A stretch of 64,000 nt of DNA from a virus (lineage: Duplodnaviria > Heunggongvirae > Uroviricota > Caudoviricetes). Numbering within the stretch: position 1 is the stretch's first letter; every line of letters starts with the position of its first letter. The DNA is taken from the IMG/VR virus record IMGVR_UViG_2917461297_000001, positions 56,643 through 120,642 of that record. The stretch is one strand, 5' to 3'. Shown one piece after another: positions 2,268 through 61,501 of the stretch. Below the pieces are notes generated by a model, which was given only the letters and a program-made list of their open reading frames with translations, searched no databases and was not told the origin of the DNA. The translations under genes were made by a program, and so were the position numbers.

Positions 2268-2889
2268 ACAGAAATATGACTAATCATGATTATACATCAT
2301 TGTGTGAGCAGCTACACGACAGAATGATATTGTGAATTGATTTTGTTTTAAAAAATTGGGATTAAATTACTGAAAATGTGGCAATATTGTGGCAAAATTT
2401 AACGATAAAATACTGATTTTATTGCAATTATGACCCCTTATAAAGCCCGTCATAGCGCCGTTTACAGTGGGTAGTACCTACCCACACGAAATAGAAAGAG
2501 CGTTGAAAGGCGTCGTATAGGCGTCGTGTGTGCATTTTTTATTTTATCCGAAACTTTTAACCTTTTTGGTTGATAGATGACAACCACATACACCAGCCAC
2601 AACAAACAACAATTTCACAACATGGGAGGTATGACAAAAAAATATAAAGACAAACACTTTGGGGGTTAGTATGGTTGAATAAAAAACGCTATATAACAGG
2701 CGACTTTAAAATCTACAGGGAGTTTTCATTCTCGAATTTTTCGACAAAAATTTACTATATAACAGGGTGTAAAACTTCTGCATGGAATTTATCAAAAAAG
2801 ACTTGTTATCTTTAAAGAAATAAATTATAATAAAGTTAAGATAAATAAAACGAACGAACACAAAAAAACAAAGGAATGGAGAGGAAAAG

Positions 2890-3942
2890 ATGACAGCGAG
2901 TGTTATAAGATTAGAAAATCATATTATGAGTAGTAAAAGTGTAACTAATAGTGTCATGAGTTTAGTTAATGAATTTGCTAATGAAGCGGGAGCTAATTCA
3001 CAAAGCACTAAGTTAGCTTACTTAAATGATTTAAAACAATATCTTAGCAAAGTCTTTGGAAGCGAGAATATTAAAGTAGACTTAGTCGTTTACACTATGA
3101 GCAGAAAACAGTTAATTCAGTATAGAAGTGTTTTAATTGATAATAAATTAAAGCCAAGTACTATTAATCGTAAAATGTCGGCTATAATCGAATTCGCAAA
3201 ATTCCTATACAACAGCGGGTATGAAATTGACCTCGTGGGTATTAACAACATTGCAAAATTAAAAACATCTAAAAATTCATATGAAGTATTGAGCTATGAT
3301 GAAGCGCTTGAGTTTATCAATTGGTTTAAAGAGAATGAGAAAGAGAAAGCAATTGAGAAATACTATTACACTGCTTTAGCGTTTGACACTGGAGTACGTG
3401 CCGAAGCATTAAACAATATCACTCCTCAATCATTTATCTGGAAGAAAGAAGAAGTTGTATTAAAAGGCGTAGATAAAGGAAAGAAACAATTTATTAAAAG
3501 TTTATCATTAGAATTCGCATCGGCGATGTTTAGCGATTTGCATTTAGATAAGGAATCTACTGAGTCAATCTTCAATTTTTCTAGTGAAGTCAGATATAAA
3601 ATGATGAAGCGGGCTAAAAAGGCTCTAGGATATGAAAATAGAAATATTACTTTTCACAGTTTCAAAAAAGGGGCAGTAAACTACGCCTATGAAGCTACAA
3701 AAGATATTCAAGTAGCTAGACAAGTGGGCAATCATGCGAATATCAACACTACTCAAATTTATCTTGAAGACAATAAGCAAGTGTTTCAAGGTGCTATATC
3801 AAATAAACAGAAAATTGATACGGCTGACATTAGATTTTCTGATTACAGTAAAACTGAGTTAATTGAGGCATTAGGTAATTTACCAGAAGCAACACAATCT
3901 ATGTTGAAAAAAGAATTAGCTTCATTAACGCAAATAAAATAA
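2890..3942 (+). CDS. tyrosine recombinase-like protein (phage integrase family)
   Basis: N-terminal SAM-like core-binding region. Catalytic-domain motifs TGVRAEAL (box I Arg), HSFKKGAVNYA (HxxK in place of HxxR) and GNHANINTTQIYLE (His, then Tyr nucleophile). Confidence 0.6.
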   Translation: MTASVIRLENHIMSSKSVTNSVMSLVNEFANEAGANSQSTKLAYLNDLKQYLSKVFGSENIKVDLVVYTMSRKQLIQYRSVLIDNKLKPSTINRKMSAIIEFAKFLYNSGYEIDLVGINNIAKLKTSKNSYEVLSYDEALEFINWFKENEKEKAIEKYYYTALAFDTGVRAEALNNITPQSFIWKKEEVVLKGVDKGKKQFIKSLSLEFASAMFSDLHLDKESTESIFNFSSEVRYKMMKRAKKALGYENRNITFHSFKKGAVNYAYEATKDIQVARQVGNHANINTTQIYLEDNKQVFQGAISNKQKIDTADIRFSDYSKTELIEALGNLPEATQSMLKKELASLTQIK

Positions 3943-4172
3943 ATTATACGAAAAATTGCATAGACAATAATTGTATTTTGTGGTTAAATGTAAGTAGTGA
4001 GTTAAAATATGCTCAGCTTGACTTTTAATTTGAATTCACTATCAACTGTTGAAACTACGATTTAAATCGATAGGTTTCAACTAATAGATGCTTGTGTTTT
4101 TAAAAATCGAAAAAACAAATTAAACAAAACAGAGAAACCAAAAAATAAAAATCGATAAATCAAAAAGTAAAA

Positions 4173-5486
4173 ATGACAAAAAGGAGGGAAAGCATGAATA
4201 ATAAATTCAAGGCTTTTAAAGAGGTTATTACACTTCTGAAAAATCAAGACACTAGTAAATCAATTAATAAAATTGCCAGTGAAATGGAAAGAAAGTATAG
4301 AGTCCCTAGTGGTATCACACATTCTTTCTTGAATCGTGAATTAGACGATAACTTTTTCGATACTACTGACATTCGACTAATTTCATTATTCATTTTAGAA
4401 AGTTTTAAAATATTGGGGCATGAAGATAGTATACAGGAGTATCTAACAGCCGGAGAAATTAATGAAGCAAAACAGTTTGATTTTCATGCATTCTTAGAGC
4501 AAGACAAAATTACTTTCCCGTATGATTTTCAACCGGTTGTTAAGGTAAACAATGTGTATAGCACAAAAATAAGTGTTAAGCAAATTGCAGAATTTGTTGA
4601 TTCTAAAGTAATCAATTATAACTTTGACATTCAACGAGAATCAAAATTGGAAAAACGAATTGGAAAAATTATTAGAAAGCCAATGTTAAACCAAAAGAAC
4701 ATTAGTGAGATGGAAAAGTTGCTTTTAGAAGATGGATTAAAAGAAAGTACACTTTTCTTTAATGCCGCTCCTATGACAAGTGTGAGTGGTGATGAATTAA
4801 TTTATGACCCAGAAAGTTATACATTAACGATTACTGAGGGAACTAGACTAGATGTTATCGATGGTTTCCACCGAGTTTTAGCAGCACAAAATGCTTATCG
4901 TGAGAACCCGACTATCAATTTTGAATTCAATGTGGTGTTTAGTAACTTTACTACAGCTGAAGCTATCAAATGGCAAGCGCAACACAGTAAGGCGACTCCG
5001 TGGTCAAAGAACAGAGTAGCTGAGTTACAACAAGAATCTGGAGGCGCCAAAGTTGTTAAGGCAATAAAAGATAAAGATGTTGTGTTTGAAGGTGTTATTA
5101 AAACTACAAGTAGCACAACAGGTGGTGGTTCAATAGCTTTTTCTGAACTAAGCAAGTATATTGATGAATTATTTACTGTAGAAACTAGGAGAGACCAAGT
5201 AAGTACAGCTCAAGAAGTTTCAGAAGTGATTTTGGCATACTTAGACTTGCGAGAAATCAATAAAACCTTTAATACTCGTGCCTACATTTACGCTTTCCTT
5301 AAAAACTATGTCGAAAGCGGTTTAACAATTAAAGAATTTTTAAATGAAACTCACAAGGTGGCTAATTATCTAAAAGATAACGAGGTCAATTTCAGAATCG
5401 AAGTGGCAAACCAAAGTGTTAAGAAAGTGCAAATTGAAGCAACCAACAATATAAAAACCTTGTTTGAGAAAGCGAGAGTGGAATAA
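4173..5486 (+). CDS. DGQHR-motif protein (DndB-like / ParB-like nuclease superfamily)
   Basis: VIDGFHRVLAAQNA resembles the invariant DGQHR motif of the DndB/DGQHR family; 437 aa; its stop overlaps the next start (TAATG). Confidence 0.4.
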   Translation: MTKRRESMNNKFKAFKEVITLLKNQDTSKSINKIASEMERKYRVPSGITHSFLNRELDDNFFDTTDIRLISLFILESFKILGHEDSIQEYLTAGEINEAKQFDFHAFLEQDKITFPYDFQPVVKVNNVYSTKISVKQIAEFVDSKVINYNFDIQRESKLEKRIGKIIRKPMLNQKNISEMEKLLLEDGLKESTLFFNAAPMTSVSGDELIYDPESYTLTITEGTRLDVIDGFHRVLAAQNAYRENPTINFEFNVVFSNFTTAEAIKWQAQHSKATPWSKNRVAELQQESGGAKVVKAIKDKDVVFEGVIKTTSSTTGGGSIAFSELSKYIDELFTVETRRDQVSTAQEVSEVILAYLDLREINKTFNTRAYIYAFLKNYVESGLTIKEFLNETHKVANYLKDNEVNFRIEVANQSVKKVQIEATNNIKTLFEKARVE

Positions 5487-6499
5487 TGTTTTACAATAGT
5501 TTGTATAAGAGACAGTTTTTACAATCTTTAGAGCGTGAAAACGAAATAAGAGTGTATACTGCATTATTCAATAACAGCAGTAAAGTAGAGCAACAATTCG
5601 ATACTGATTTGTATAACTTTACAACTTCTGAAATAGAAATTTTGCTTTATAATATCTATTCCTCCAGTAAAAACACTTTACTAACTTATTTAACATTTGC
5701 TAAAAAGTATACTGATTACGCTATCGAGAGAGGAGATAGATTATCTAACATTAATTTGTTCAGAATGTTTACGTACGATAAGATTGATAAGTTTGTATAT
5801 AAACATAAACAAAAGTTTTTCACGTACGAGAAATTCCTACTACATGTTAGTAGCTTCTATAATGCTAGCGATAGAGCATTAGTTTCAGCAATCTTTCATG
5901 GCATTTCTGGGGCGGCTTATAGCGAACTAATCAATCTAACCATCGATGATATTAAAGAAGCTAGAAGTAATCCAACACATGTCGCTGGTGATGAACAATA
6001 TTATAAATTGAGGCTTTTAAACGATAAGAAAGGTGAAACAATTGAGCGCTATATTGAAGTGCCAGAGGTTTTGTTAGATGATATGGAAAAATCATATAGA
6101 GCTACAATCTATTACACCAAGAACGGTGACCCTAGTTCTAGAAGACCTGCAAAAGACATAATAGGCGGAAATCATATTTTTAGAAATGTCGAGTTTACTG
6201 ACACCACAACAGAACAAATTGATAAGCAAGTAGTATATAGACGAATGAAAGTCCTACAAGACTTAACTAACAATTACATTTCAAGTGTTACTAACGTAAT
6301 TGATTCTGGTATATTGCACTATATGTATTTACTATCAGAAAACGGAAAATTAGATTACATGAAAATAGAAAAAGTGATGAGAAGATATAGTAAACACATT
6401 TATGAAAAGTCACTACCATATACAATCGCTAGGTTTATCAAACAATATCAAGATGCTTTACAAGATTTATATGGAGTAGTAATAGTGAATAAGCCCTAA
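5486..6499 (+). CDS. recombinase-like protein, catalytically degenerate
   Basis: N-terminal integrase SAM-like pattern. The box I-like stretch GISGAAYSELINLTIDDI lacks the catalytic Arg, and no HxxR/Y pair is evident. Confidence 0.3.
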   Translation: MFYNSLYKRQFLQSLERENEIRVYTALFNNSSKVEQQFDTDLYNFTTSEIEILLYNIYSSSKNTLLTYLTFAKKYTDYAIERGDRLSNINLFRMFTYDKIDKFVYKHKQKFFTYEKFLLHVSSFYNASDRALVSAIFHGISGAAYSELINLTIDDIKEARSNPTHVAGDEQYYKLRLLNDKKGETIERYIEVPEVLLDDMEKSYRATIYYTKNGDPSSRRPAKDIIGGNHIFRNVEFTDTTTEQIDKQVVYRRMKVLQDLTNNYISSVTNVIDSGILHYMYLLSENGKLDYMKIEKVMRRYSKHIYEKSLPYTIARFIKQYQDALQDLYGVVIVNKP

Positions 6500-6543
6500 A
6501 AAATTATTAGGGCAAATCAAAGGAAATAAATTAATAAAAAGTG

Positions 6544-6572
6544 TTGACGTAATTCCAATTTGATAGTATAAT
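6544..6572 (+). promoter_or_regulatory. sigma-A type promoter (TTGACG, 17 nt, TATAAT)
   Basis: TTGACG at 6544-6549, 17-nt spacer, TATAAT at 6567-6572; the AAATAAATTAAT motif lies 8 nt upstream of the -35. Confidence 0.6.
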
Positions 6573-6646
6573 CATATTTGTGGTTGTATTATGAAATTGT
6601 AATTACTCAGATTACAAGAAATAAATTAATCGAAAGGGGAAATGTT

Positions 6647-6889
6647 TTGGCTCATTACAGTGTTAGAATTACACGAGACAAATCTTTTAAGAAATTGAAA
6701 GATAAAGAGCTCGAAGCAATTAAGAAAGAAGCAATAGAAAGTGTGTACGAGTTGATTAAGAAACACATTATCGCTCACAATTTGAGTAAAGATGGAGGAA
6801 ATTCAACCGTTATCGAGTTTGATATTGATGTTAATACTCCTCCAGTTACACGTGACAAAGAGTATACAACTATTATTGAATTACTTTGA
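6647..6889 (+). CDS. small hypothetical protein
   Basis: The track ORF 6578-6889 begins inside the promoter; the likely start is TTG 6647 after AAAGGGG. Confidence 0.35.
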   Translation: MAHYSVRITRDKSFKKLKDKELEAIKKEAIESVYELIKKHIIAHNLSKDGGNSTVIEFDIDVNTPPVTRDKEYTTIIELL

Positions 6890-8039: not shown

Positions 8040-8085
8040 TCTTAAAATCAATAAAAATAAATTAAAATACATAGGAGAGAATAAT

Positions 8086-9036
8086 ATGGCTGAAAACAAA
8101 CGATATGAGAACAAAGTAACGGTAGTAGGAGAACTTAAAGAGTTAGAGGTACGAGAAATCACAACTAAAAAAGGTGTCCCAATGAAAATGGCAAACATCT
8201 CTGTACAAGTTGGTAAAGGTGAAGTACATAAAGCTAGAATGTCAGCTATGGAATACTATGAAAACGATGGTAAAAAGGAAGAGAACAAGGCTTATAAAGC
8301 TATTGAGACTATGCAAGATGAATATGTAAGTCTTAAAGACATTGCTGAGAAAAACTTACAAGGCGTTAGTCCAACTGTTATTGGTATTAATGGACATATT
8401 GAAAACAATGTGTATCAAGGACGTGACGGTAAATTAGTGGAGATGCCAACAATTCAAGCTAATTTTGTATCTCGACGTAATGTTGAAAAAGAAGATTATG
8501 GTGCTGAATTTATCTTCCAAACATTTGCTTTATCAAGTGCCACTCGAGTTACTAATAAAGAGGGGGACGAAACAGATAGCGTACGTTTCAAAGTAGCAGC
8601 TATTCATCGTGGCATGGCTCAACCGTTTGAAGTTCAAGCGACTGATGAATATGGTGTTGCTGAATGGTTAGAAGATAATCTTGAAAAAGGTATGACATTA
8701 ACTATTAATGGTCAATGGATTAATAAATATATTCTAAAACAAGTAGAACGTCCTAATCCAGCCGGCATCGGTAAACCAATCGTAGATACTAAACGTGAAA
8801 TTGAAAACCGTATTTTAGTTGAAGGTGTCACTCCGGTAGAAGATGAAGAATCAGTTGATTACATTACTACTGATGAAATGAAAGACGCTATGAAGAAATA
8901 TGAAGACTATAAAGTAGAGCGTCAATCAGCTTCACAAGAGAAGAAAAAGCAAGAGGTTAAAAAAGGAGTTAATATTGTTAAGAAATCTACGGCGGCAAGT
9001 ACTCCGGCTTTAACAGATGAAGATTTACCTTTTTAA
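8086..9036 (+). CDS. putative ssDNA-binding protein (SSB-like acidic tail)
   Basis: C-terminus ...ALTDEDLPF matches the SSB C-terminal tip (D-D-D-[IL]-P-F); sits at the head of the replication module; the rest of the protein is not a canonical SSB. Confidence 0.4.
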   Translation: MAENKRYENKVTVVGELKELEVREITTKKGVPMKMANISVQVGKGEVHKARMSAMEYYENDGKKEENKAYKAIETMQDEYVSLKDIAEKNLQGVSPTVIGINGHIENNVYQGRDGKLVEMPTIQANFVSRRNVEKEDYGAEFIFQTFALSSATRVTNKEGDETDSVRFKVAAIHRGMAQPFEVQATDEYGVAEWLEDNLEKGMTLTINGQWINKYILKQVERPNPAGIGKPIVDTKREIENRILVEGVTPVEDEESVDYITTDEMKDAMKKYEDYKVERQSASQEKKKQEVKKGVNIVKKSTAASTPALTDEDLPF

Positions 9037-9127
9037 TATCAAGAAATAAATTAATTGATGTTATGTGTAGATTGTAGCAAGGTGAGATAATTCTTGCCTT
9101 GCTGATATTAAAGGAGACAGAGGAGAA

Positions 9128-16235: not shown

Positions 16236-16254
16236 AAATAAATTAATAAAAACG

Positions 16255-16283
16255 TTGACAAAGAAAAAATGTTGATATATAAT
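16255..16283 (+). promoter_or_regulatory. strong sigma-A promoter (TTGACA, 17 nt, TATAAT)
   Basis: TTGACA at 16255-16260, 17-nt spacer, TATAAT at 16278-16283; the AAATAAATTAAT motif lies 7 nt upstream. Confidence 0.65.
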
Positions 16284-16582
16284 TTAGTCATAAGGTAAAA
16301 ACAGGAGATAAACAATGAGTAATCATTGGTTTGTGTTGATAATCTCACCTTATCAATATTCTCGAATGATTAGTCTTTAATAATTAAATTTAGTCTAATA
16401 GGGATTAACTCCCTATACGCTCATGCACATAGTTTGTGGTATTATTGATACACAGGTGCAATTCCTGTATGTGAGCCCCAAAACACATAGTAAATGTAAT
16501 CAGGCGTTTAGTATTTCTAACCTTATACTAGACGCCAACTTTTAAAAGAATAGAAATAAATTAATATATAAGAGGTATAAAA

Positions 16583-16996: not shown

Positions 16997-17399
16997 CATT
17001 AATAAGAAAGTAAGGCTATCAGAGTTATTGGAGATTGCTTGGGAAGAAGATTTTAGCGAACGTACATTTGTAGGAAACGAGAAAACAAAGGTTTATTTTG
17101 ATTCGGACGGCTATGTTACCGTAAGTCAAAAGTTTACGTCTGAGGAAGAGTTTGATGTAACAACAAGCAAATCAGTTGATAAAGATACAATTCTTAATCG
17201 AGTCGATATTGTGATTAATAATAGCGGCGTAGGAAATAAAGCAGAATCATTAGGAAAATTAATTACAATCACACAAAGCAATGTGTCTATTAACGGTGTG
17301 TTGAATAATAATCCTAATGTGACTTCGATTATTTATACTGATGACAGAGGGATTGCTACAACAATCTGGAGTTTTGAAGAAGAAAAAGAAATAAATTAA
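16986..17399 (+). CDS. hypothetical protein, paralog family MxIxxKK
   Basis: Start moved to ATG 16986 (RBS GGGAGGAAG); the N-terminus MNININKKVRLSELLEIAWEED is paralogous to ORFs 19611 and 19972. Confidence 0.45.
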   Translation: MNININKKVRLSELLEIAWEEDFSERTFVGNEKTKVYFDSDGYVTVSQKFTSEEEFDVTTSKSVDKDTILNRVDIVINNSGVGNKAESLGKLITITQSNVSINGVLNNNPNVTSIIYTDDRGIATTIWSFEEEKEIN

Positions 17400-17454
17400 T
17401 TTATATTGACAAGTAGAGTGGATAATAGAAAACAAAATTGGGAGTTGATTAGAA

Positions 17455-17781: not shown

Positions 17782-17879
17782 AAAATAAATTAATTGATAA
17801 GGAGTGGTGGTATGAGTGAGAAAAGTCGTTATTGGGATAAGAAAGATATTTTAGAACGTGTAAAAGAGGCGTTAGGACG

Positions 17880-18107
17880 ATGAGTAAATCTTACAAGAAT
17901 ACAATTTTTATCACAACGTTAGATGACAAAAACGAAGAAATTATATCGGCAATCAGAGATGTGCAAAAAGTTGAATGGAATGATACTTTGCTTAGACTTT
18001 TTATTACATATAAAGATGGCGATACCCAATTATTCTTTTTAGACCACTTTAAAGAAAGTTTACTAAGTTTACAATTCGGCAGTGATATTAAGTTTAATGA
18101 GTATTAA
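17880..18107 (+). CDS. hypothetical protein
   Basis: 75-aa ORF. Confidence 0.3.
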   Translation: MSKSYKNTIFITTLDDKNEEIISAIRDVQKVEWNDTLLRLFITYKDGDTQLFFLDHFKESLLSLQFGSDIKFNEY

Positions 18108-19982: not shown

Positions 19983-20379
19983 AGTTAAAAAGAAAATGAA
20001 CCTACATGAATTAATTCAATGGGCTTGGGAGAACGATGTTAGAAATAAAACTTTTAGAAGTGATAAGGTTTTAGGTCAAATTGTTAGATTCGATGAAAAT
20101 GGATATTTGGATATTAGTAACAAGATTACTGCGAAGAATGAAACATTTACAGTAGAAATCGAAGAGACAATCACGGAGGAGTATAAACTCCCTGAAGGTT
20201 TAGCAATGTATAAGAGTGATAATGACGATTTACAAAATATTCAATTAAAAAATCTAAGTATTAATGATGCTAAAAAGTATGTCGACGAGTTAGATGGAAA
20301 ACTTGAAGCGTTTTATATGGTTAATAGTAGCACTGATTTAGTATTAATTTGGAAAGATGGGAGATGGTGGAATGAGTAA
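19972..20379 (+). CDS. hypothetical protein, paralog family MKIKVKK
   Basis: N-terminus MKIKVKKKMNLHELIQWAWENDV; tandem paralog. Confidence 0.45.
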   Translation: MKIKVKKKMNLHELIQWAWENDVRNKTFRSDKVLGQIVRFDENGYLDISNKITAKNETFTVEIEETITEEYKLPEGLAMYKSDNDDLQNIQLKNLSINDAKKYVDELDGKLEAFYMVNSSTDLVLIWKDGRWWNE

Positions 20380-20794
20380 AAGAAATAAAAGACAACTCAT
20401 GGATAGTTTTATTTACTATGTGAATCATGATAAAGAGTATTTGCTTAACAAGGAACAAAGAAAAGTTGTAAAACCTTATGTGTGGAGATATAAACTGGTA
20501 ACACCTTTAGCAAAAATTAAAATTGGTTTAATACCTATTAATGAATTTATTTTTGATGGGTTGAGCTTCCTTTTGGAAAAGGCAAATGATTTAGTAAGAG
20601 ATATAGAGTATCGTATTTTTAAATTTTTAAGTACAGACCCACTTTTTGTTAGAAATACTAGGAAGAAATTTGAAAATAAGTTAATAGAATTGGAAGATGA
20701 TACTGGTTTAGAGAGATTAGCTAGATTCAAAGAAGAAAAAAAGGAGAAGAATCTTGTGTATGTTCGACCTACAAAAAGTAATAAAAACAATTAA
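20357..20794 (+). CDS. hypothetical protein
   Basis: 145-aa ORF; an alternative start at ATG 20372 is possible. Confidence 0.35.
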   Translation: MGDGGMSKRNKRQLMDSFIYYVNHDKEYLLNKEQRKVVKPYVWRYKLVTPLAKIKIGLIPINEFIFDGLSFLLEKANDLVRDIEYRIFKFLSTDPLFVRNTRKKFENKLIELEDDTGLERLARFKEEKKEKNLVYVRPTKSNKNN

Positions 20795-20847
20795 AGGAGT
20801 TTTCAAACACAAACTGATTACCCAATCTAATTGAGGAGGACGAGCTA

Positions 20848-22767: not shown

Positions 22768-25074
22768 ATGAAACAATTAGTATTACTTAGAGGCGCGCCA
22801 GCTAGTGGTAAGTCAACCTTTTTAAAAGAAAATGGCTTAGAACCGTTCGCATTATCACCTGATGTGTTAAGGTATTCGGCACCAGTAGTCAACGAAACAG
22901 GTCAACTGGTAATGTCTCAAGAAAACGATAATAAAGTATGGAAGTTGTTGTTCGAGATTCTTGAAGAGCGTATGAAAAATGGTGATTTTATTATTGTCGA
23001 TGCTACTCATTCAACAGCTAAACTAATTAACAAATATAAAAAATTAAGAGAAAGTTATGGTTACCGTACATATGTGGTTGATTTTGATATACCCTTAGAA
23101 GAATGTTTAAAGAGAAATAGCCGAAGAAAAGAGTATGAATTTGTTCCAGAAGAAGCTATTGAGAATATTCATGAACGATTAAAGTACGAGAATATTCCTA
23201 GTTTTGCTAAAGTGTTAAAACCAGAAGAATTGTTGGAAGAAATTGAATGGAAAGTGCAAGATTTTAATCAATTTAATAAAGTCAAAGTTATTGGTGATGT
23301 GCATGGTTGCTATACTGCATTAAATGAATTAGTTACATATGAAGAAATTGCTGATAATCAAGACACAGCTTATATTTTTGTAGGAGATTTGTTCGATAGA
23401 GGGTTAGAAAACGCAAAAGTATTTGAATTCATTGAATCTATTTATAACTTGTCTAACGTGTTTCTGATTGAAGGGAATCATGAAAGACATTTGAGAACAT
23501 ATATAAAAGTATATGACGAGTTAATTGATGAGCTTAATTATAGCTTAGGTGATACTGAAAAAGATAAGTACAATAAAATGTATAAATACATTAAGTCTCG
23601 TGGATTCATTCAAACGACACTAAAAGAATTTTTAGATAGTGGAATCACAAAAGACCGAGTAAAGCCAATCCTAAGAAAATTGCTACAATGCTTGTATTTT
23701 GAGTTAAATGGTTCTCAATATATTGTGACTCATGGTGGTATTTTACCGAACATGATTCCAAATTTAAACTTAGTTTCTACTAGCCAATTAATTAATGGAA
23801 TTGGTGGATATGAGTTTGAAATCGATGATGAATGGAGTGATGAAAACTTTTACATGATTCAAAACCGTATTATTCAAATACATGGTCACAGAAATCTTTA
23901 TCGTATTCCATTGGACGTAGATGCAAGCTCAATCAACTTAGAAGGAAGAGTTGAGAAAGGTGGGCATTTGAGAGCCATTACTATTATTAAAGGGAACCCT
24001 TTTGTTAAGAACAAAATTGAGACTCATGAAATTAAGAATGATGTGTTTGACTCAAAATGGTTAATTTCAGACGATTACACAGAAAAGTTAGATGTTGATT
24101 TAACAGTAGAACAATTTATTGATGCAGCAAAAAGTGATAGAAAGTATATCAAAGTTCAAAATCAATATGATAATGTGTGCTCTGTTAATTTCACATCAAA
24201 GCTGTTTAATAGTGGGAAATGGAATCAGTTAGCAGTGCATGCAAGAGGGTTATTTGTTAAAGACGATGGAGCGGATAGTGTAGTTAAAGGTCGAGCGTAT
24301 AACAAATTCTTCAACATTGATGAAAACAAAAAAAATAAATTAGATAAACTTATTGACAGACTGGAGTTTCCTGTAAAAGCATATCGAAAAGAAAATGGAT
24401 ATTTAGGAATCCTGTTTTACGATAGTGATATTGACGAACTTGTGTATGCTTCAAAGAGTAAAACTCACAAAGCAAAGTATGACAATCAATATGCGTTGTG
24501 GTTCAAGGATATAGTTGAGAATGCTTTAAGTGTTGATGAATTGGAGAGGCTAAAAAATGAGCTTAAAGAGTACAACGCATCAGCTGTGTTTGAAGTAATT
24601 GATGTTAAGAATGACCCACACATCGCTAAATATGATAGAAGTAAAATTATACTCTTAGATGTTGTAAAGAACCAACTACAATTTGAAAGAGTGAGTGAAG
24701 ATTACAGTCGAGAACTAGCTGCTATGATTGGACTAGAGCACAAGGAGTTAGAGTTTACTTTCAATAACTGGCAAGATTTCTATCAATGGTATAAGGTGCA
24801 AATTAAGAGCTTGGACGCAAAACATGAAGGTTGGGTACTTGAAGACAGCAAGGGCTATATGCTCAAGATAAAATCTAAATGGTACAAAGACTGGAAGTAT
24901 ATTAGAAAGTTCATTGGTAAGATTAACACTGGTTATTCACCAAAACAATTTATTTTACAAAGTAACCATGAAGTAAGAGATTTTTATTACTGGTATAAGA
25001 AAAATGGAAAGAAAACAGATAGAGATAGCGACTTAATTAGATTGAGAGATGAGTTCTACGAACAAGAGGGTTAA
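22768..25074 (+). CDS. Pnkp-like RNA repair enzyme (5'-kinase / 2',3'-phosphatase / ligase-type nucleotidyltransferase fusion)
   Basis: N-terminal P-loop LLRGAPASGKSTF. Central calcineurin-like motifs GDVHGCY, GDLFDRG, GNHE, THGG and GHRN. C-terminal nucleotidyltransferase motif I KxDG (FVKDDGAD). Same architecture as bacterial Pnkp. Confidence 0.6.
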   Translation: MKQLVLLRGAPASGKSTFLKENGLEPFALSPDVLRYSAPVVNETGQLVMSQENDNKVWKLLFEILEERMKNGDFIIVDATHSTAKLINKYKKLRESYGYRTYVVDFDIPLEECLKRNSRRKEYEFVPEEAIENIHERLKYENIPSFAKVLKPEELLEEIEWKVQDFNQFNKVKVIGDVHGCYTALNELVTYEEIADNQDTAYIFVGDLFDRGLENAKVFEFIESIYNLSNVFLIEGNHERHLRTYIKVYDELIDELNYSLGDTEKDKYNKMYKYIKSRGFIQTTLKEFLDSGITKDRVKPILRKLLQCLYFELNGSQYIVTHGGILPNMIPNLNLVSTSQLINGIGGYEFEIDDEWSDENFYMIQNRIIQIHGHRNLYRIPLDVDASSINLEGRVEKGGHLRAITIIKGNPFVKNKIETHEIKNDVFDSKWLISDDYTEKLDVDLTVEQFIDAAKSDRKYIKVQNQYDNVCSVNFTSKLFNSGKWNQLAVHARGLFVKDDGADSVVKGRAYNKFFNIDENKKNKLDKLIDRLEFPVKAYRKENGYLGILFYDSDIDELVYASKSKTHKAKYDNQYALWFKDIVENALSVDELERLKNELKEYNASAVFEVIDVKNDPHIAKYDRSKIILLDVVKNQLQFERVSEDYSRELAAMIGLEHKELEFTFNNWQDFYQWYKVQIKSLDAKHEGWVLEDSKGYMLKIKSKWYKDWKYIRKFIGKINTGYSPKQFILQSNHEVRDFYYWYKKNGKKTDRDSDLIRLRDEFYEQEG

Positions 25075-32938: not shown

Positions 32939-33098
32939 TCTGTCACCTCACACACACATTGTAGAACATTTGTTCTTGTTGGGCAAGAGAATATGTTTTA
33001 TATATTAGTAAGATGTGTTTATTTTTTAAGCGCACCTTTTTATTTGGGCGGTGATTATACAGATTATGAAAAGATTAAAAATAAATTAATGAATATTG

Positions 33099-33127
33099 TT
33101 GACATATAGAAAATGAGGTTGTATAGT
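33099..33127 (+). promoter_or_regulatory. strong sigma-A promoter driving the TnpB-like gene
   Basis: TTGACA at 33099-33104, 17-nt spacer, TATAGT at 33122-33127; the AAATAAATTAAT motif lies 8 nt upstream. Confidence 0.6.
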
Positions 33128-33169
33128 ATTAAGTGTAACAAAGAAAAAAAATTAAATGAGGTGAAACGA

Positions 33170-34522
33170 ATGGAAAGTGAAAAAGAAAAATATGTCGTGC
33201 AATCGTACGGGATTAAGCTAATTAAACCAGTAGGTGTTGATGAAGGAGATTGGGATTTTGCTGGTAAAGTGTTAAGAGATTTAGACTACGCTTGCTTTAG
33301 AGTTAAAAATAAAGCAGCTACTAGAACTTACATGAACGTAATTGAGAAATTAGAATATGAAAACATTCATGGTAAAGGAACATATGATAAGTATTTTAAA
33401 ACGAGATATGGTAAGACATTTTCAGCCTATAACAGCGAATGCGCAAGAGAAGATAAAGAATTAAATAAAGGAGATTTATACAGAGAATATTTCAATTTAA
33501 TGGCTCGTGAGGGTGAAAAGGTTGTAAAATATAACATGAAAAAAATATTAAATGGGAACGCAAGCAACATTACTTTCAAAAGAAATCAACCAGTCCCTAT
33601 AACTTCAAGAATGATTTTTATCACAAAAGAAAGTGGGAAATATTATGCTGAGTTGACTTTGCTAAGTCCTGAAAAAGCGAAAGAGCTTGGCAGAAAAGGG
33701 AAGAATGGTACAAGAATCAAATTTTTACTTAGCTCTAAAGGACAGGAAAAAGTTATATTAGACAGATTAACAAGTGGTGAATATGATTTAAGAGATAGTC
33801 ATATTCACGTTAAAAAGAAAGGAAATAAATTAACTAACTATTTAATCATTGCTTATAGACATAAAGTAAAAGACGATAACGATTTGATTCCGAATAAAGT
33901 ATTAGGTGTTGACTTAGGAGTATCAAAAGCGGCATATATGGCTGTTAGTGAATCACCAGTGTCTGAATATATAAATGGTGGAGAAATTGAGCAGTTTAGA
34001 AATGGCGTTGAAGCTAGAAGGAACGGCATGAGAAATCAGTTGAAATATCACTCTAGCAACAGAAGCGGACATGGCAGAGCAACGAAACTAAAGCCGTTAG
34101 AAAAACTTAGAGAGAAAGTCAGCAATTTTAGAAAACTAACAAATCATCGTTATGCTAAATTTATTGTTGATACCGCATTGAAAAATAATTGCTCAATTAT
34201 TCAAATGGAAGAATTGAAAGGTATCTCGAAAAACGACACATTTCTGAAGCGTTGGAGTTATTTTGATTTACAAGAAAAAATTGAGAATAAAGCAATAGCA
34301 GTAGGTATTGAGGTGAAAAAAGTTTCTCCTAAATTTACCTCTCAAAGATGTAATAAATGCGGTTATATCGATAAAGAGAGCCGAAAAAGTCAAGAGAAGT
34401 TTGAATGTGTGAATTGTGGGCATAAAACTAACGCTGATTTAAATGCCGCAAGAAACCTTTCAATGCTCAATGTTGAAAAAGAAATAAAAGCGCAATGTAA
34501 GGCACAAAAAATTAAGTATTGA
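33170..34522 (+). CDS. TnpB/Cas12-like RNA-guided nuclease (RuvC + zinc finger)
   Basis: RuvC-I VLGVDLGVS, RuvC-II IIQMEELKG and RuvC-III NADLNAARNL, with the zinc finger CNKCGY...CVNCGH between II and III. Start moved to ATG 33170 (RBS GAGGTG) because 33113 lies inside the promoter. Confidence 0.75.
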   Translation: MESEKEKYVVQSYGIKLIKPVGVDEGDWDFAGKVLRDLDYACFRVKNKAATRTYMNVIEKLEYENIHGKGTYDKYFKTRYGKTFSAYNSECAREDKELNKGDLYREYFNLMAREGEKVVKYNMKKILNGNASNITFKRNQPVPITSRMIFITKESGKYYAELTLLSPEKAKELGRKGKNGTRIKFLLSSKGQEKVILDRLTSGEYDLRDSHIHVKKKGNKLTNYLIIAYRHKVKDDNDLIPNKVLGVDLGVSKAAYMAVSESPVSEYINGGEIEQFRNGVEARRNGMRNQLKYHSSNRSGHGRATKLKPLEKLREKVSNFRKLTNHRYAKFIVDTALKNNCSIIQMEELKGISKNDTFLKRWSYFDLQEKIENKAIAVGIEVKKVSPKFTSQRCNKCGYIDKESRKSQEKFECVNCGHKTNADLNAARNLSMLNVEKEIKAQCKAQKIKY

Positions 34523-34749
34523 AAATAAATTAATAAATTAAATATCGCAAGGTGCTAAACGTCATAGCATCGTGGCAGTATCATGTCACAAAATCGAGAA
34601 AGTGTCGTTTTAACAAGGTAAATACATAATTTTTAACGATATATAAAACGAAATACACTCGAAAGGTAAACTGAATAATCAGTTTGAAATCTAGCTCACA
34701 AATACCGAGTTAGACTACTCGCCAATGTTTGACGTTAGATTGGTTAGAG

Positions 34750-35672: not shown

Positions 35673-35972
35673 ATGGATATAATTACTGATGTATATTTAA
35701 AATTTATAAACAATAAAAATAAAATAATTTATATTGACAACAAAGAAGTTGAAGTAAAAATTTCTAATAGTTTTGCAACCGATGATGGAAGCGTTTTTGT
35801 ATTGGCTTTGAGATATAAAGACACATTCGAGATTTTTGAAATATCTCAAATGTATTTTAGCGATTATGTGACTATAAAAACTAAATATGAAAGAGTTGGC
35901 GTAAAGAATGAAGAAGAGTTTGATTTTGCTATAGAAAGATTGATAACGAGATATTTATTAGATAAGAATTGA
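35673..35972 (+). CDS. hypothetical protein
   Basis: 99-aa ORF. Confidence 0.35.
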   Translation: MDIITDVYLKFINNKNKIIYIDNKEVEVKISNSFATDDGSVFVLALRYKDTFEIFEISQMYFSDYVTIKTKYERVGVKNEEEFDFAIERLITRYLLDKN

Positions 35973-41262: not shown

Positions 41263-41656
41263 CATTTCAGACATTTGCATAAAAGTCGTCAAGATTTCCC
41301 TAAATTATTGGGGATTAAATGTGAACGCAAGACAAAGCGGTGTGCTTAGAATTATTCTAAGTGCTAACAGTATCAGTTGAATAAGACTACCATTCAAGCC
41401 TTACAAGGAGATAATGGAAATAAATTAAAAGACGAAGCAGCTGACTAAGAGAGCCTAAGGTCTATTAATAAAAATAGATAGCTGGTAATACTGTGCGAAG
41501 CCTTTAGTTCAAAGGAACGTGCAACGACTATCCTGTAAAGGAGTACGCCTGATTTTGTCACAGGTGGAAGCGCATTTACATACATATGTATGGTGATATA
41601 GTCTATTCCGACTGTTAATTCAGTGTTAAAGTATTAGGAAACTAACGGTGTATAAG
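41263..41656 (+). ncRNA. putative ORF-less group I intron interrupting dnaE
   Basis: About 394 nt with no ORF, inserted inside the conserved NPERxSMP-DIDIDF region; the 3' end is ...UAUAAG (terminal G); exon 2 resumes in frame with DVDVDIE. Confidence 0.4.
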
Positions 41657-44143: not shown

Positions 44144-44223
44144 AATATTCTCTTGACTTGTTGTAAATTAGAGCATATAATGATTAAAGAAATAAATTAT
44201 TTGAAATAGAGAGGAGGATAAAA

Positions 44224-44643
44224 GTGAGAGGGACGATTATTGTGAACAACACACAGCAGTATTTGGAGGAATTAGAAAGTGAAATTACATATGCTAGACA
44301 AATGATTAATGAGTCAGCTGCAAAAGTTAATGAATTGTACCATGATATTGAGACAAGAAATTTTAATGCATATGAGGCTTGGGTGCTATGCAAAGAATTA
44401 CAAAATGTCTTACAAGAAAGACGAGCATGGAAGCAAAGATGCTTTGAAGCAAAAGAATCGTTTAACGATTTAGGTGGAAAGAAGAAATTAAACCAATTGA
44501 AAAAACGGCAAAAGAATCGAGTTAATAAGTTTATGAAATTAAACTCTTGGTTTGACCATTTTTCTGAGGAAGCGAAAGAAATTATGGCTGGTAACACGGC
44601 AATCAAAGTTAAGCGCAATGATACTTTAGTTAATCAAAAATAA
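44224..44643 (+). CDS. hypothetical coiled-coil protein
   Basis: 139-aa ORF with RBS GAGAGGAGGA and GTG start. Confidence 0.4.
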   Translation: MRGTIIVNNTQQYLEELESEITYARQMINESAAKVNELYHDIETRNFNAYEAWVLCKELQNVLQERRAWKQRCFEAKESFNDLGGKKKLNQLKKRQKNRVNKFMKLNSWFDHFSEEAKEIMAGNTAIKVKRNDTLVNQK

Positions 44644-44724
44644 AATATTTTATTGGTTATCCTTATGGTTATGTGGTATAATATAAATATAAACAAACAC
44701 ATAAGACAAAGAGGAGAGCAACAT

Positions 44725-46366: not shown

Positions 46367-46395
46367 TAAATAAATTAATTGAAAAGGAAAATAAA

Positions 46396-47826: not shown

Positions 47827-47854
47827 AAATAAATTATTTAAATAAGGTGAAAAT

Positions 47855-49402: not shown

Positions 49403-49434
49403 AAATAAATTATTTAAATAAGGTGATATTACCA

Positions 49435-49831: not shown

Positions 49832-50690
49832 ATCCGACGTAAGATTAGTTAACGGTACAACAATTAAAGATGTTGATTTATTGTTCCACGGCTCACCTTG
49901 CCAATCGTTTAGTATAGCGGGTAAACAAGAAGGTGGAGATAAAAATAGTGGAACAAAATCATCTTTAATGTGGGAAACAGTTAGAATTGTATCAGAATGT
50001 AAGCCCAAGGTTGTTATCTGGGAGAATGTTAAATCTGTATTGAATAAGAATCATAAACATAACTTTGACGCTTATTTAAATGAGTTAGATAGCTTAGGAT
50101 ATACTTCTAGTTACAAAATTATAAGTCCAAGAGATATTGGTGAGGCTCAAAGCCGACCTCGTGTCTTTGTTGTAAGTATATTAGGGGGCAAATTCGAGTT
50201 TCCCGACATTCAAAAGCAAAAACAGCGTGTGATTGGCGATTATTTAGAGCCAAAAGCAAGTTAATCATACATACTTTCTAAGCAATCAGTTTTGGCTCTA
50301 GCAAACAACAATCCTAACTTTAAAGGTAGAATGACAGTGTTAAAACATAATGAATTAGCTTGTTGTTTAGTGGCTAAAGGTGGAAAGGCGGCTAGGACTA
50401 ATAATTTTGTGTTATACAACACAGAAGATTATTCTAAGCTGATTAACCCCAAAGATATTAACTATCTAGTGGATAATAACATACATATTAGAGGTTTAAC
50501 TCCTTTAGAATACTGGAGACTTCAAGGTTTTACAGACAAACAATTTTATGAAGCTCAAAAAGCATTAGCTGATACATATAAGAATGGTGAATTAATTAAA
50601 GCAGATGCTCAATTGTATAAACAAGCAGGAAATTCAATTAATGTAAAAGTATTGGAAAGTTTTATTGGTGAGGTTATTGAGAATTTATAA
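49805..50690 (+). pseudogene. C5-cytosine DNA methyltransferase body (motifs IV-X), no start codon, one in-frame TAA
   Basis: LFHGSPCQSFSIAGK (motif IV PCQ), ENVKSVL (motif VI) and QAGNSINVKVL (motif X); the frame opens at 49805 with no start; an in-frame TAA at 50262-50264 splits it into ORFs 49881-50264 and 50292-50690. Confidence 0.6.
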
Positions 50691-50718
50691 AAATAAATTA
50701 ATGGAAGGTGGAATTATA

Positions 50719-52321: not shown

Positions 52322-52914
52322 TGGTAAACTTTTTACATATGTTAAACATCTTGGTTGTGGCAATCTTTATGGTTGGTTATTTACCACAAGTTTATACAAC
52401 TATTAAATACAAACAACACAAAGGCGTGTCAACTTCTTTTTGGTACTATGTTGCTGTGTCAACTTCAATTACGTTGCATAACATGATTATTACTGGTGAA
52501 GCTGAGTGGTACATGTATATGGGGCAAATCGTCAATGCCTTGTTTGCAGTCATTTTCTTTGTATATTTCAACCATATGCGTAATAAACATTACAAAGCAA
52601 GATATATCGCTTTTCTAGTAGCTTACCTGTTAGTAACGCCAATGGCTACTAACTTATTAGATGTAAGCCATTCACAAATCGTTGCTTCAGTCGCAATTGT
52701 AGCGGCATATGTGTCACAATTAAAACATTTTTATATTAATAAAACGTCAGAAGGCACTAATCCATTACTATATGGGCTATTTGCAACAGGTATTTTAGTC
52801 TTAATACTTATCTTATTGCTCACGGGAGCAAGCACACACGTTATTATCACAGAATCAATCAATGTTGGTCTATTGTTCGTTTGTTACGTAGCCGCTGTGA
52901 TTTATAAGAAATAA
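52321..52914 (+). CDS. polytopic membrane protein
   Basis: At least five hydrophobic segments; translationally coupled to the SPFH gene. Confidence 0.45.
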   Translation: MVNFLHMLNILVVAIFMVGYLPQVYTTIKYKQHKGVSTSFWYYVAVSTSITLHNMIITGEAEWYMYMGQIVNALFAVIFFVYFNHMRNKHYKARYIAFLVAYLLVTPMATNLLDVSHSQIVASVAIVAAYVSQLKHFYINKTSEGTNPLLYGLFATGILVLILILLLTGASTHVIITESINVGLLFVCYVAAVIYKK

Positions 52915-52928
52915 ATTATTGAAATAGG

Positions 52929-52957
52929 TTGACACACTATAAACAATCATTTAATAT
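52929..52957 (+). promoter_or_regulatory. sigma-A promoter (TTGACA, 17 nt, TAATAT)
   Basis: TTGACA at 52929-52934, 17-nt spacer, TAATAT at 52952-52957; the 12-nt motif (AAATAAATTATT variant) ends 8 nt upstream of the -35. Confidence 0.55.
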
Positions 52958-54359: not shown

Positions 54360-54809
54360 TTGTCAACTTACAATATGATTTTTATGAATAAAGATAAATT
54401 AATTGATAAAAGGAAGAAGGTAAGTCTTTTGGATAAAGATATTCTAGTTGTCTACTATACTTATACAGGAAAAACAGAAGTCTTTGCAAAAGAGTTAAGA
54501 GCTTATGGTATTAGAACGCTTAGCATTGACGAAAGCAGTGTTGTTAATGAACCATTTATCCTTGTTACACCAACATATAGTTTTGGAGAAGTGCCGAAAA
54601 CAGTTCTGGCATTTCTTGAAAACAACAGCGATAATCTTAAAGCAGTTATGTCCTCAGGTAACAGAAACTGGGGAGGTAACTTCGCTATAGCCGGTGACAT
54701 TGTATCAAAAACATACGGTGTTCAATTGATAGGCAAGTTTGAAATGAATGGAAACAAAAGTGATGTGGAAAAGTTGGTGTCATACATAAAAGGAGTGGAT
54801 AATCATTAA
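54360..54809 (+). CDS. nrdI: NrdI-like flavodoxin
   Basis: LVVYYTYTGKTEVFAKEL resembles the NrdI FMN-binding loop; directly upstream of nrdE; start uncertain. Confidence 0.45.
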   Translation: MSTYNMIFMNKDKLIDKRKKVSLLDKDILVVYYTYTGKTEVFAKELRAYGIRTLSIDESSVVNEPFILVTPTYSFGEVPKTVLAFLENNSDNLKAVMSSGNRNWGGNFAIAGDIVSKTYGVQLIGKFEMNGNKSDVEKLVSYIKGVDNH

Positions 54810-54822: not shown

Positions 54823-55182
54823 GTGGATAATCAAATTGCCTTGATAAATGAATTACAAACAACTAGCGAGCAAGATTTTAAACTAATCTCTAAAGCCGTG
54901 AAATGTTTAAAAAAGTTAAAGGATATACAATTTGAGTTTGAAGAAGATACAGAGTTCAATATCATATCCGAGTTTAGCGGGATTGGAATAGAGCACTTTT
55001 TCATAGACGATATGAATGATAATTTCAATGAGTTTGATGAAGCGGCAATGGATAACTCATTAACTTGGTACAAAAAGATGAATGATGCTTTAACACAAAA
55101 AATTATCAAAGACATTGACTTCATCAGGAATGCTGACGACAAAGAAGTACAAGATTACAAAGATAAATTATTAAATCATTAA
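54823..55182 (+). CDS. hypothetical acidic protein
   Basis: 119-aa ORF. Confidence 0.35.
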   Translation: MDNQIALINELQTTSEQDFKLISKAVKCLKKLKDIQFEFEEDTEFNIISEFSGIGIEHFFIDDMNDNFNEFDEAAMDNSLTWYKKMNDALTQKIIKDIDFIRNADDKEVQDYKDKLLNH

Positions 55183-60255: not shown

Positions 60256-60257
60256 GA

Positions 60258-60683
60258 ATGGGCAAATTAACGTTAAAAGAAGCGCAAGAAAAAGAAGAAA
60301 ATTTAGTTACCCAGTTACACGGGTGTTTAAACGAAATTGAAGAGTTGGCTTTATGTGATGATAACCTTATCATTGATTCAGTAGAGTTTAACAACAGTAA
60401 AAATTATTACAACTCATTCAACACGAACAACCATGATATTACTATGCAACTAATGATTACAATCAAACATGCTAATTCATTTGTGGACGAAGATGAAGCA
60501 GATAATGGTCAACGGCTTCAAGACAGAGCAGAACAAATATTAAAAGACTACAAAGAATATTGCGACATGTTGTACAAGGAACGAGAGTTTAAACCAAGTG
60601 ATACTGATAAAGCTAGCACGCTTCATAAATATTTTAATAATAGCATGAAAAAAATATTTGTTAGTGATGGATTGGTGAAATAA
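60258..60683 (+). CDS. hypothetical protein
   Basis: 141-aa ORF. Confidence 0.35.
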   Translation: MGKLTLKEAQEKEENLVTQLHGCLNEIEELALCDDNLIIDSVEFNNSKNYYNSFNTNNHDITMQLMITIKHANSFVDEDEADNGQRLQDRAEQILKDYKEYCDMLYKEREFKPSDTDKASTLHKYFNNSMKKIFVSDGLVK

Positions 60684-60687
60684 TTTT

Positions 60688-61275
60688 ATGACAAATAAAA
60701 CATGTAAGCTATCTTTACCGCTACCTACATCATTAAACAAATTATACATACAACAATTCTCTGGGGGCAGACCAACGGGCAAGAAGATTTTATCCAAAGC
60801 TGGCAAAGAGAACAGAATGGATATTATGATTAATGTTGAGAGACAAATGTCCTTGCCAATAAATGTTGATTGGGATATTGAATATACACGTGATAATTAC
60901 ATATTTATGGATATTGACGCATATGTAACAAGAGTGAACGTTGACTTGGATAATACTTTGAAGTCACTTAATGATTCAATTGAGGAATCGGGATTAGTTT
61001 TTATTAATGATAAAAAAGTAGTTCCAAGATTTAACAGAGTATATATCGATTCAGCTAACCCTCGTTTAGAATTAACATTTACTCAAACAGGTTGGCATGG
61101 CATTTTTAACAACCAGTACGAAAGAGATAAGTTTGAAAGCAAGTGTAAATTATGCACAAGGTATAGAAACGGTGTTTGTTCAATCTTGAAGAAAACATTA
61201 GAAAATAAATTAATTGATGAAGTCATTGAAGAAGACAATCAATACGTTTGTTCTAAGTTTAAGGAGAAGAAGTAA
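60688..61275 (+). CDS. hypothetical protein
   Basis: 195 aa; cysteine pairs near the C-terminus (CKLCTRYRNGVC). Confidence 0.35.
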   Translation: MTNKTCKLSLPLPTSLNKLYIQQFSGGRPTGKKILSKAGKENRMDIMINVERQMSLPINVDWDIEYTRDNYIFMDIDAYVTRVNVDLDNTLKSLNDSIEESGLVFINDKKVVPRFNRVYIDSANPRLELTFTQTGWHGIFNNQYERDKFESKCKLCTRYRNGVCSILKKTLENKLIDEVIEEDNQYVCSKFKEKK

Positions 61276-61501
61276 GATGAAAATTGTTATGGATAGATGT
61301 GTTTTAGAAGAGTTTGCAACTAAGTGGAGAATTAAAATCAGAAGAGAAAGAATTACTGATATGGCGAAAGTTATAAGTCAATATTGTTAATACATATTTG
61401 CATTCCTCACATGAAAAATTGTGGGGAATTTTTATAGACAAATAAATGCACAGAGTATATAATGATTATAAGGAAATAAATTAATAGATAAAGGTGATAA
61501 A

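Follow-up and report, generated by a model that had tools for sequence, protein, structure and literature searches.

Two phage repressors with dispersed operator boxes are the closest described counterparts of the repeated motif analyzed here. Phi3TRE, the box of phage phi3T, was reportedly first defined by Brady et al. in 2023 (Cell Host Microbe). The phi3T repressor, SroF, is a monomer whose CB and CAT domains clamp the asymmetric 26-bp box CAGTAATTTTATTTTTATTCTTAATG, reading two consecutive A-tracts (AAAAATAAAA); it has multiple sites genome-wide and represses a box-bearing promoter (bioRxiv 10.1101/2025.11.27.690993). The SroF proteins of phi3T and SPbeta differ in the motif that they recognize, and each is phage-specific (bioRxiv 10.1101/2025.11.27.690993). 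In SPbeta, the repressor is MrpR (YopR, alias SroF), which has a tyrosine-recombinase fold and binds the element SPBRE at 10 sites by chromatin affinity purification sequencing (ChAP-seq) (PMC10516654). Here we analyzed a 64,000-nucleotide stretch of viral DNA (positions 56,643 to 120,642 of IMG/VR record IMGVR_UViG_2917461297_000001), referred to as the window, in which a short A-tract motif recurs between genes on one strand. An operator for a global phage regulator was one of several roles raised when the motif was noticed by eye (the original prediction), and it is the one that we favor: the motif is probably the operator box of an SroF/MrpR-type master repressor encoded at 5486-6499, the counterpart of Phi3TRE and SPBRE, because the repressor gene is present and the motif matches the phi3T SroF box in sequence type, copy number, orientation, and placement. 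From homology, we infer binding, repression, and a roadblock role. Systems of this kind are already known (SPBRE and Phi3TRE), while the presence, sequence, and map of one in a staphylococcal-type SPbeta-like phage appear to be undescribed in the searchable literature.

Pfam matches and synteny place the window in the early/replication region of an SPbeta-like phage with nearly all of its genes on the + strand. Recognizable genes are yopP-like, yopQ-like, and yopR/mrpR-like genes and those for Sak4, DnaB, RecJ, a gap-split DnaE, DNA ligase, NrdIEF, MazG, RusA, and a large serine recombinase. By DnaE, the closest database phages are SPbeta-like phages of Mammaliicoccus and Staphylococcus (~60% identity), with SPbeta and phi3T at 41%. 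A DNA search against phage records returned a single 97-nt match, so that no known phage corresponds to the window at the level of DNA. A scan of genome contigs with the DNA ligase protein recovered no relatives. As a close relative, we used one IMG/VR contig of ~86% DNA identity (IMGVR_UViG_2718218201_000002), compared through three partly overlapping stretches (L007, L008, and L009). The late region falls outside the window, and the split between early and late copies was judged from an SPbeta-like phage of Staphylococcus epidermidis (NC_029119) and from SPbeta.

The 12-mer AAATAAATTAWT has 17 exact matches in the window, all on the + strand, against 0.55 expected and a maximum of 4 in 100 dinucleotide-preserving shuffles; with one mismatch allowed, there are 50 matches against 12.5 expected. 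The over-representation and strand exclusivity seen by eye are thus borne out. The 10-nt core AAATAAATTA is the top over-represented 10-mer of the window, with 25 copies on the + strand and none on the − strand (order-3 Markov expectation, 1.45, and 0.83 for the reverse complement), and a weight matrix built from the copies (−2 to +15) finds 36 sites on the + strand and 1 on the − strand, compared with 3.7 in shuffles. Intergenic DNA makes up only 5,971 nt (9.3% of the window) yet holds 19 of the 25 cores. Alignment of the copies lengthens the 12-nt motif first proposed to RR-AAATAAATTA-WT-N-R-A, in which the A at position 15 is present in 24 of 25 copies. The motif is asymmetric (AAA-T-AAA-TT) and does contain TAA in two frames; information extends from about −5 to +15, with strong conservation only over 10 to 15 nt. 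The coordinates first given were correct to within 1 nt, although exact copies at 6619 and 61203 had been overlooked and those at 3937 and 41418 are exact for the 10-mer and one base off the 12-mer. Of the ~75 gaps that measure 12 nt or more, just ~20 have the motif, which is therefore not a default junction sequence. Other enriched k-mers (GTGGATAAT, AGTTAATTGA, and AATCAGTTGA) were set aside, their copies lying mostly within open reading frames (ORFs). Rfam searches at gathering thresholds and a tRNA scan of the window gave no matches.

Comparison with the 86%-identical relative separates the core from its surroundings. In ~15 of 16 orthologous pairs, the intergenic core is unchanged, whereas the 30-nt flanks are only 83 to 84% identical, and the relative carries 12, 9, and 4 copies in L007, L008, and L009, respectively, on the gene strand only. 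The core is exact even where the flanks are heavily rearranged, as at 44190 (~82% identical, with indels) and 52909 (69% identical). The relative does not keep the copies inside genes at 24333, 26089, and 33823, which are therefore chance occurrences. The repeated motif is real and under selection. Exact cores within such diverged flanks, positioned at gene junctions, would also be expected of a recombination linker at module boundaries, its identity kept because it promotes module shuffling between related phages, as for lambdoid boundary sequences or the early-promoter stem-loops (PeSLs) of T4; the phi3T-type boxes that SPbeta carries in modules common to phi3T fit that idea as well. A core of 10 to 15 nt is, however, very short for homologous recombination, and a linker leaves unexplained both the fixed relation of the copies to −35 and −10 elements and the link to repressor type described below. 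We consider a linker very improbable.

The gene at 5486-6499 encodes the proposed reader of the box. The best PDB match of its product is 9rd5/9rgl (E = 1.9e-28), ahead of the MrpR/YopR structures 8a0a and 8bj6 (E of ~1e-8). The 9rd5/9rgl chain, whose PDB entry name is silent on its identity, agrees residue for residue with phi3T_97, and we therefore take it to be phi3T SroF. The window protein is 31% identical to phi3T SroF (phi3T_97; E = 3e-36) and 22% identical to SPbeta YopR. Seven of the published base-reading residues of phi3T SroF can be aligned: Y26, K233, and R238 are kept (as Y24, K247, and R252 of the window protein), and T22, L25, F234, and H237 are changed, a mixture that fits a related yet distinct box specificity. 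The repressor gene is the last of an operon syntenic with SPbeta yopP-yopQ-yopR, and its two upstream genes (2890..5486) carry Pfam Phage_integrase and DndB-like domains. A variant box forms part of the promoter of this operon (2818), where it is likely a site of autoregulation, to judge from the described systems.

Neither arbitrium genes nor a Sar antirepressor was identified in the window. The first ORF after sroF (6647-6889; 80 amino acids) holds roughly the position of Sar in phi3T and SPbeta; as a Sar-type candidate it has no family match, and its single-sequence AlphaFold model is too poor to use (predicted local distance difference test score, 48). Upstream of it, an inverted repeat, TTGTAAT-N7-ATTACAA, lies at 6573-6618 between the post-repressor promoter and the second box of that unit. 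A LexA-controlled Sar candidate was likewise rejected: the sole perfect LexA (Cheo) box of the window (GAACATTTGTTC, 32964-32975) belongs to a YolD-like gene on the − strand (32525-32938), lying in the divergent region upstream of it, and probably places that YolD-type gene, rather than an antirepressor, under SOS control.

The motif resembles Phi3TRE most closely. The reverse complement of CAGTAATTTTATTTTTATTCTTAATG contains AGAATAAAAATAAAAT, and a map of AGAATAAAAATAAAAT boxes in phi3T gave 23 on the + strand plus 3 on the − strand before the − strand genes yonP/yonO, all 26 co-oriented with genes. Some precede a Shine-Dalgarno (SD) site by 3 to 5 nt and others a −35 hexamer by 5 to 6 nt; the yonP promoter (TTTACA-AGAATAAAAATAAAATA-TATAAT) has a box within its spacer, and yosX shows a box-promoter-box-SD unit. 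The window shares this site grammar in four contexts, including a pair of boxes at 6524 and 6619 that resembles the yosX unit. A matrix of the phi3T boxes run over the window gave best matches of 20.9, 15.5, and 13.3 bits on the + strand, against 7.9 bits for the best on the − strand, and pairs AAATAAATT of the window with AAATAAAAT of the phi3T box. Both phages thus have asymmetric A-tract boxes (AAAAATAAAAT in phi3T and AAATAAATT in the window), in ~25 to 30 copies co-oriented with early genes, and cognate integrase-fold repressors. The differences are a shorter core in the window (A3-T-A3-TT versus A5-T-A4-T, then AAT versus TAC), a staphylococcus-type rather than a Bacillus host, and the change of 4 of the 7 alignable base-reading residues.

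The relation to SPBRE is one of system rather than of sequence. We rederived the SPBRE consensus from the ten SPbeta ChAP-seq targets as ACAAATACAAAWAATATGTATATAAT; its core, TATGTATA, is a different sequence, and we rejected the identity of the motif with SPBRE itself. Nor is the SPBRE core AATATGTATA within ACAAATACAAA...TATAAT matched by any such enriched motif in the window. Like the motif, SPBRE is a repeated, oriented early-region element with a homologous repressor, and some of its copies abut SD sites (yopV and yopM, both ChAP-seq peaks). Unlike the motif, it usually is itself the full promoter spacer plus −10, it has ~10 to 13 copies in SPbeta, and its repressor is only 22% identical to that of the window. 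Three positions agree between the systems: the promoter of the repressor operon (SPBRE at yopM, the first gene of the operon, and the box at 2818), the junction after DnaE (SPBRE after yorL and upstream of yorM and the box at 44190), and the promoter of the first late-cluster gene (SPBRE at yonP and boxes in the S. epidermidis phage). Copies are dispersed through the early region in both reference phages, with early-to-late ratios of 18:1 in the S. epidermidis phage and 14:1 in SPbeta.

A-tract boxes outnumber SPBRE-like sites by 26 to 1 in phi3T; SPbeta has 7 of the former and 13 of the latter. Which type of box dominates therefore tracks the type of repressor. The seven oriented AGAATAAAAATAAAAT boxes of SPbeta (NC_001884, L001 to L003) lie, for example, at 90643, 113689, 129186, and 132772, upstream of yoqN, mtbP, yotJ, and others. 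Those at yoqN, mtbP, and yotJ are outside the ten genes with MrpR ChAP-seq peaks, and the one at yosX adjoins an SPBRE that has a peak. Module exchange with phi3T-like phages may have left them behind, or they may serve some other function.

At promoters, the motif may end 5 to 8 nt short of a −35 hexamer (6524, 16236, 33079, 52909, and the 44638 variant) or start 8 to 10 nt past a −10 element (44190 and 61474); a leader also holds the copy at 6619. The variant AAATAAATTATAAT at 2818 constitutes the spacer and −10 of the repressor-operon promoter (TTGTTA-17-TATAAT). All four + strand promoters that scored 11 to 12 of 12 in a consensus scan (6544, 16255, 33099, and 44153) abut a copy, and the promoters at 2803, 52929, 44653, and 61435 likewise have an adjoining or embedded box. 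Boxes at promoters abut the −35, fill the spacer, or directly follow the −10, with the geometry seen in phi3T. The arrangement at 6524 has an orthologous counterpart in the S. epidermidis phage and in lineage L018. If the motif is the operator of the window repressor, one monomer would clamp each A-tract box (AAA-T-AAA-TT...) as phi3T SroF does, at ~25 to 30 boxes across the early region, all in the direction of the genes. A clamp at the −35, in the spacer, or just past the −10 would block RNA polymerase at a host-type promoter, and promoters blocked in this way, including that of the repressor operon, would keep the early genes silent in the lysogen.

Copies just upstream of a −35 also suggested an UP element. 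A −35 hexamer does follow 5 to 8 nt downstream at 6524, 16236, 33079, and 52909; at 17389, the TTGACA is there but a −10 at usable spacing is lacking. The first four lie at ~−55 to −44 of a strong promoter and look like the UP consensus, proximal A-run included, and a generic AT-rich enhancer read by the host would cover both placements, through the C-terminal domain of the RNA polymerase alpha subunit near a −35 and, near an SD, by enhancing translation or providing a standby site. Yet only ~6 of ~30 copies stand within −60 to −40 of a sigma-A promoter; in those the likeness to UP elements in AT content and position is good, while most window copies, largely SD-side, have no downstream promoter. 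Moreover, at the orthologous promoter downstream of the repressor gene, lineages differ in how far the motif lies from the −35 (16 to 21 nt), which speaks against an UP element or activator site with strict phasing. Host readers accept degenerate A/T sequence, whereas the 10-mer is kept exactly between relatives that are 86% identical; the SroF-bearing lineage L043 has the G/C-containing AAACAAAAGTATTGCAA in both contexts; and late genes go without the motif. The UP-element idea thus has the right geometry for a minority of copies, and we regard a host-read enhancer as quite improbable.

The largest context is not at promoters. At 8055, 16554, 17783, 46368, 47827, 49403, 50691, and 55161, the motif follows a stop codon and stands 4 to 8 nt ahead of an SD, with its start 28 to 35 nt from the start codon; the SD directly downstream had been described correctly, and the distance of 28 to 35 nt holds for ~12 copies. 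As operators, such SD-side boxes without a promoter may act as roadblocks or auxiliary sites. Their position between an upstream stop codon and the following SD would also suit a signal in the polycistronic RNA of the early genes, whether for processing or for binding by a translational repressor, and the copies at 44190 and 61474 begin nearly at the expected sigma-A transcript starts. Copies in divergent regions weaken that proposal: 33079 and 2818 have no upstream + strand gene, and with copies in the sigma-gene promoter region of the S. epidermidis phage, they sit where no transcript of that strand is expected. A purely RNA-level role is therefore unlikely and a role at the DNA level is favored. 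The copies ahead of a −35 also lie 60 to 80 nt from the next SD. All told, an RNA signal strikes us as highly unlikely.

A phage-class-specific (middle) promoter is another reading of the same placements. TAAAWT would be a −10-like element with transcription starting near A15, read by a redirected host polymerase or a phage polymerase, and the result would be short SD-containing leaders or tandem promoters together with host-type ones. One rule would then account for co-orientation, the 28 to 35 nt to start codons, the conserved A15, the restriction to early genes, and the copy before a late regulator gene, and ~25 to 30 copies are typical of a promoter class. In this respect, the motif is like the T4 late promoters (TATAAATA) and other phage promoters without a −35, which are short, AT-rich, oriented elements 15 to 35 nt from starts, in many copies, and at one gene class. 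Pfam scans of 50 window proteins, however, found no sigma factor, RNA polymerase, or RNA-binding regulator, and no phage sigma factor or coactivator was identified in the window. The predicted leaders would begin 0 to 5 nt before the SD and sometimes within it, and the near-identical element of phi3T is a crystallographically defined repressor box. The phage-specific promoter of the original prediction is thus without positive support; we retain it as a rival, though an improbable one.

Related lineages carry variants of the box in the same places. The S. epidermidis phage uses AAATAAAATATAA (also written AAGAAATAAAATATAAWAA) in the same contexts, with 18 early copies and 1 late copy; the late copy belongs to the promoter (TTTACA-AAAGAAATAAAATATAG-TAAAAT) of the gene that comes first in the late cluster, with another copy upstream. 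Lineages L010 and L018 use AAGATAAAATATAAC, L015 and L020 use AAATAAATTATA, and the more distant repressor-bearing lineage L043 uses AAACAAAAGTATTGCAA ahead of SD sites and as part of a promoter. The box variants of the staphylococcal lineages (AAATAAATTAAT, AAATAAAATATAA, and AGATAAAATATAAC) suggest immunity groups. If the operator reading is true, the SroF/MrpR system reaches beyond the arbitrium phages of Bacillus to the large SPbeta-like prophages that staphylococci and related bacteria carry, and the analysis yields a map of ~25 to 30 predicted repressor sites and of the promoters they guard. Known prophages of this group carry resistance and virulence genes.

Several observations weigh against the assignment of the motif to the repressor. 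Roughly half of the boxes stand beside SD sites without a recognizable promoter, an arrangement for which a simple operator model has no need. Strong conservation of the window motif covers 10 to 15 nt, less than the 24 bp read by phi3T SroF, and because its sequence is AT-rich and low in complexity, similarity to the phi3T box alone has limited weight. Repressor identity and box variant, compared across 43 loci, correspond cleanly only for phi3T versus SPbeta and not among the staphylococcal lineages: the L020 repressor is 36 to 37% identical and goes with the same core, whereas that of L018 is 43 to 44% identical and goes with a different variant. The 7 phi3T-type boxes of SPbeta also imply that A-tract boxes may persist or act without a cognate repressor. 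The boxes might therefore do more than classical operators do, with ~30 monomeric clamps forming a genome-wide roadblock array that insulates early gene blocks in the lysogen or with a bifunctional element being read by a second, lytic factor as a promoter or RNA leader. We raise this because about half of the boxes in every lineage, phi3T included, lie between stop codon and SD without a promoter and because SPbeta keeps oriented phi3T-type boxes outside its MrpR ChAP-seq peaks; such an added function is rather unlikely, though worth keeping in view. The predicted operator boxes and the repressor operon are listed in Table 1.

Table 1. Predicted boxes, associated promoters, and repressor-operon genes in the window
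Feature	Coordinates	Strand	Remarks
Repressor-operon promoter, TTGTTA-17-TATAAT	2803..2832	+	Promoter consensus scan
Box variant AAATAAATTATAATA (also written AAATAAATTATAAT)	2818..2832	+	Forms spacer and −10 of repressor-operon promoter
sroD (yopP-like)	2890-3942	+	Pfam; tblastn to SPbeta yopP
Box	3937..3951	+	Overlaps stop codon of yopP-like gene; core kept in relative
sroE (yopQ-like)	4173-5486	+	Pfam; tblastn to SPbeta yopQ
sroF/mrpR (yopR) homologue, integrase-fold master repressor, proposed box reader	5486..6499	+	Pfam MrpR_N_CB, E = 2.4e-16
Box	6524..6538	+	Just after sroF; 5-8 nt before −35 of strong promoter 6544-6572 (TTGACG-17-TATAAT)
Second box of 6524 unit	6619..6633	+	In 5′ leader, 28 nt before TTG start at 6647; layout box-promoter-box-SD
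Box	8055..8069	+	Upstream of SD; start 8086
Box	9044..9058	+	After stop at 9036; hairpin, then start 9128
Box	16236..16250	+	Right after recJ-like stop; upstream of perfect promoter 16255-16283 (12/12 matches)
Box	16554..16568	+	Upstream of SD; start 16583
Box	17389..17403	+	Overlaps stop codon; TTGACA follows, no canonical −10
Box	17783..17797	+	Upstream of SD of 23-codon ORF (17812)
Box	33079..33093	+	Upstream of promoter 33099-33127; divergent region, no upstream + gene
Degenerate box AAAAAAATTAAATGA	33145..33159	+	tnpB leader; relative has exact AAATAAATTA there (L007 2156)
Box	34523..34537	+	Immediately after tnpB stop codon
Variant box AAATAAAATAATTTA	35717..35731	+	TTGACA follows; best phi3T-matrix match of window (20.9 bits)
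Box	41418..41432	+	Inside putative dnaE group I intron; significance uncertain
Box	44190..44204	+	After dnaE, 8 nt past −10 of promoter 44153-44181; start 44224
Variant box AAATAAAATATTTTA	44638..44652	+	Abuts −35 TTGGTT of extended −10 promoter (TGgTATAAT), read directly from sequence
Box	46368..46382	+	Upstream of SD; start 46396
Box	47827..47841	+	Upstream of SD; start 47855
Box	49403..49417	+	Upstream of SD; start 49434
Box	50691..50705	+	Upstream of SD; start 50719
Box	52909..52923	+	Upstream of promoter 52929-52957
Variant box AGATAAATTAATTGA	54392..54406	+	After stop codon; core exact in relative
Variant box	55161..55175	+	Upstream of nrdE SD; start 55196
Exact copy	61203..61217	+	Within 3′ part of RusA-like gene; conserved in relative; function uncertain
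Box	61474..61488	+	10 nt past −10 of TAGACA(61435)-17-TATAAT(61458-61463), promoter read directly from sequence; start 61502

Other repeats turned up in related phages. An enrichment of ATACATAT in the S. epidermidis phage was considered as a second element and rejected, being explained by codon usage and by a low-complexity tract, a ~600-nt repeat of the (ACATAT/ACACAT) type in an unannotated early region (NC_029119, ~20150-20800). A distant phage with an SroF homologue (L033) has 8 copies of GCCTATCAC(C) within ~250 bp (8533-8800), ~1.2 kb upstream of the gene, an iteron-like or operator-like array unlike the dispersed boxes elsewhere. Four low-GC (25%) contigs with partial SroF-like matches (L036, L037, L040, and L041) carry 10 to 20 copies of ATAGATAACAAGATTTGTTT on one strand only.

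Several features of the window lie beside boxes. The copy at 41418 is, as first described, inside a putative intron: the 298-nt gap that splits dnaE (41350-41647) holds no ORF and gives a full-length, sub-threshold match to the group I intron family RF00028 (23.5 bits, E = 7e-4, span 41319-41623). The dnaE gene of the 86%-identical relative is uninterrupted, and the intron was therefore gained or lost recently. A TnpB gene (33113-34522; Cas12f-like TNB and OrfB_IS605 domains) lies in the early region here and in the relative; one box precedes its promoter, another stands in its leader, and a third comes right after its stop codon. The 23-codon ORF directly after the box at 17783 (17812-17883) has a good SD and a stop codon that overlaps the start of the next gene (ATGA), and it may encode a leader peptide or serve to couple translation.

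At 49881-50690, adjacent ORFs of 127 and 132 amino acids match separate parts of the SPbeta C5-methyltransferase MtbP (443 amino acids) and follow a 267-nt gap in which small ORFs lie on the − strand; the locus resembles a methyltransferase gene that has been split or has decayed. A 768-amino-acid fusion of P-loop kinase, metallophosphatase, and T4 Rnl1-type RNA ligase (22768-25074) looks like a one-polypeptide RNA repair enzyme, possibly countering anticodon nucleases. Finally, a gene for a Myb-like DNA-binding protein (61502-62056), preceded by a terminator, a promoter, and a box, lies directly upstream of the gene for the large serine recombinase (62056-63615), and its product may be a recombination directionality factor.

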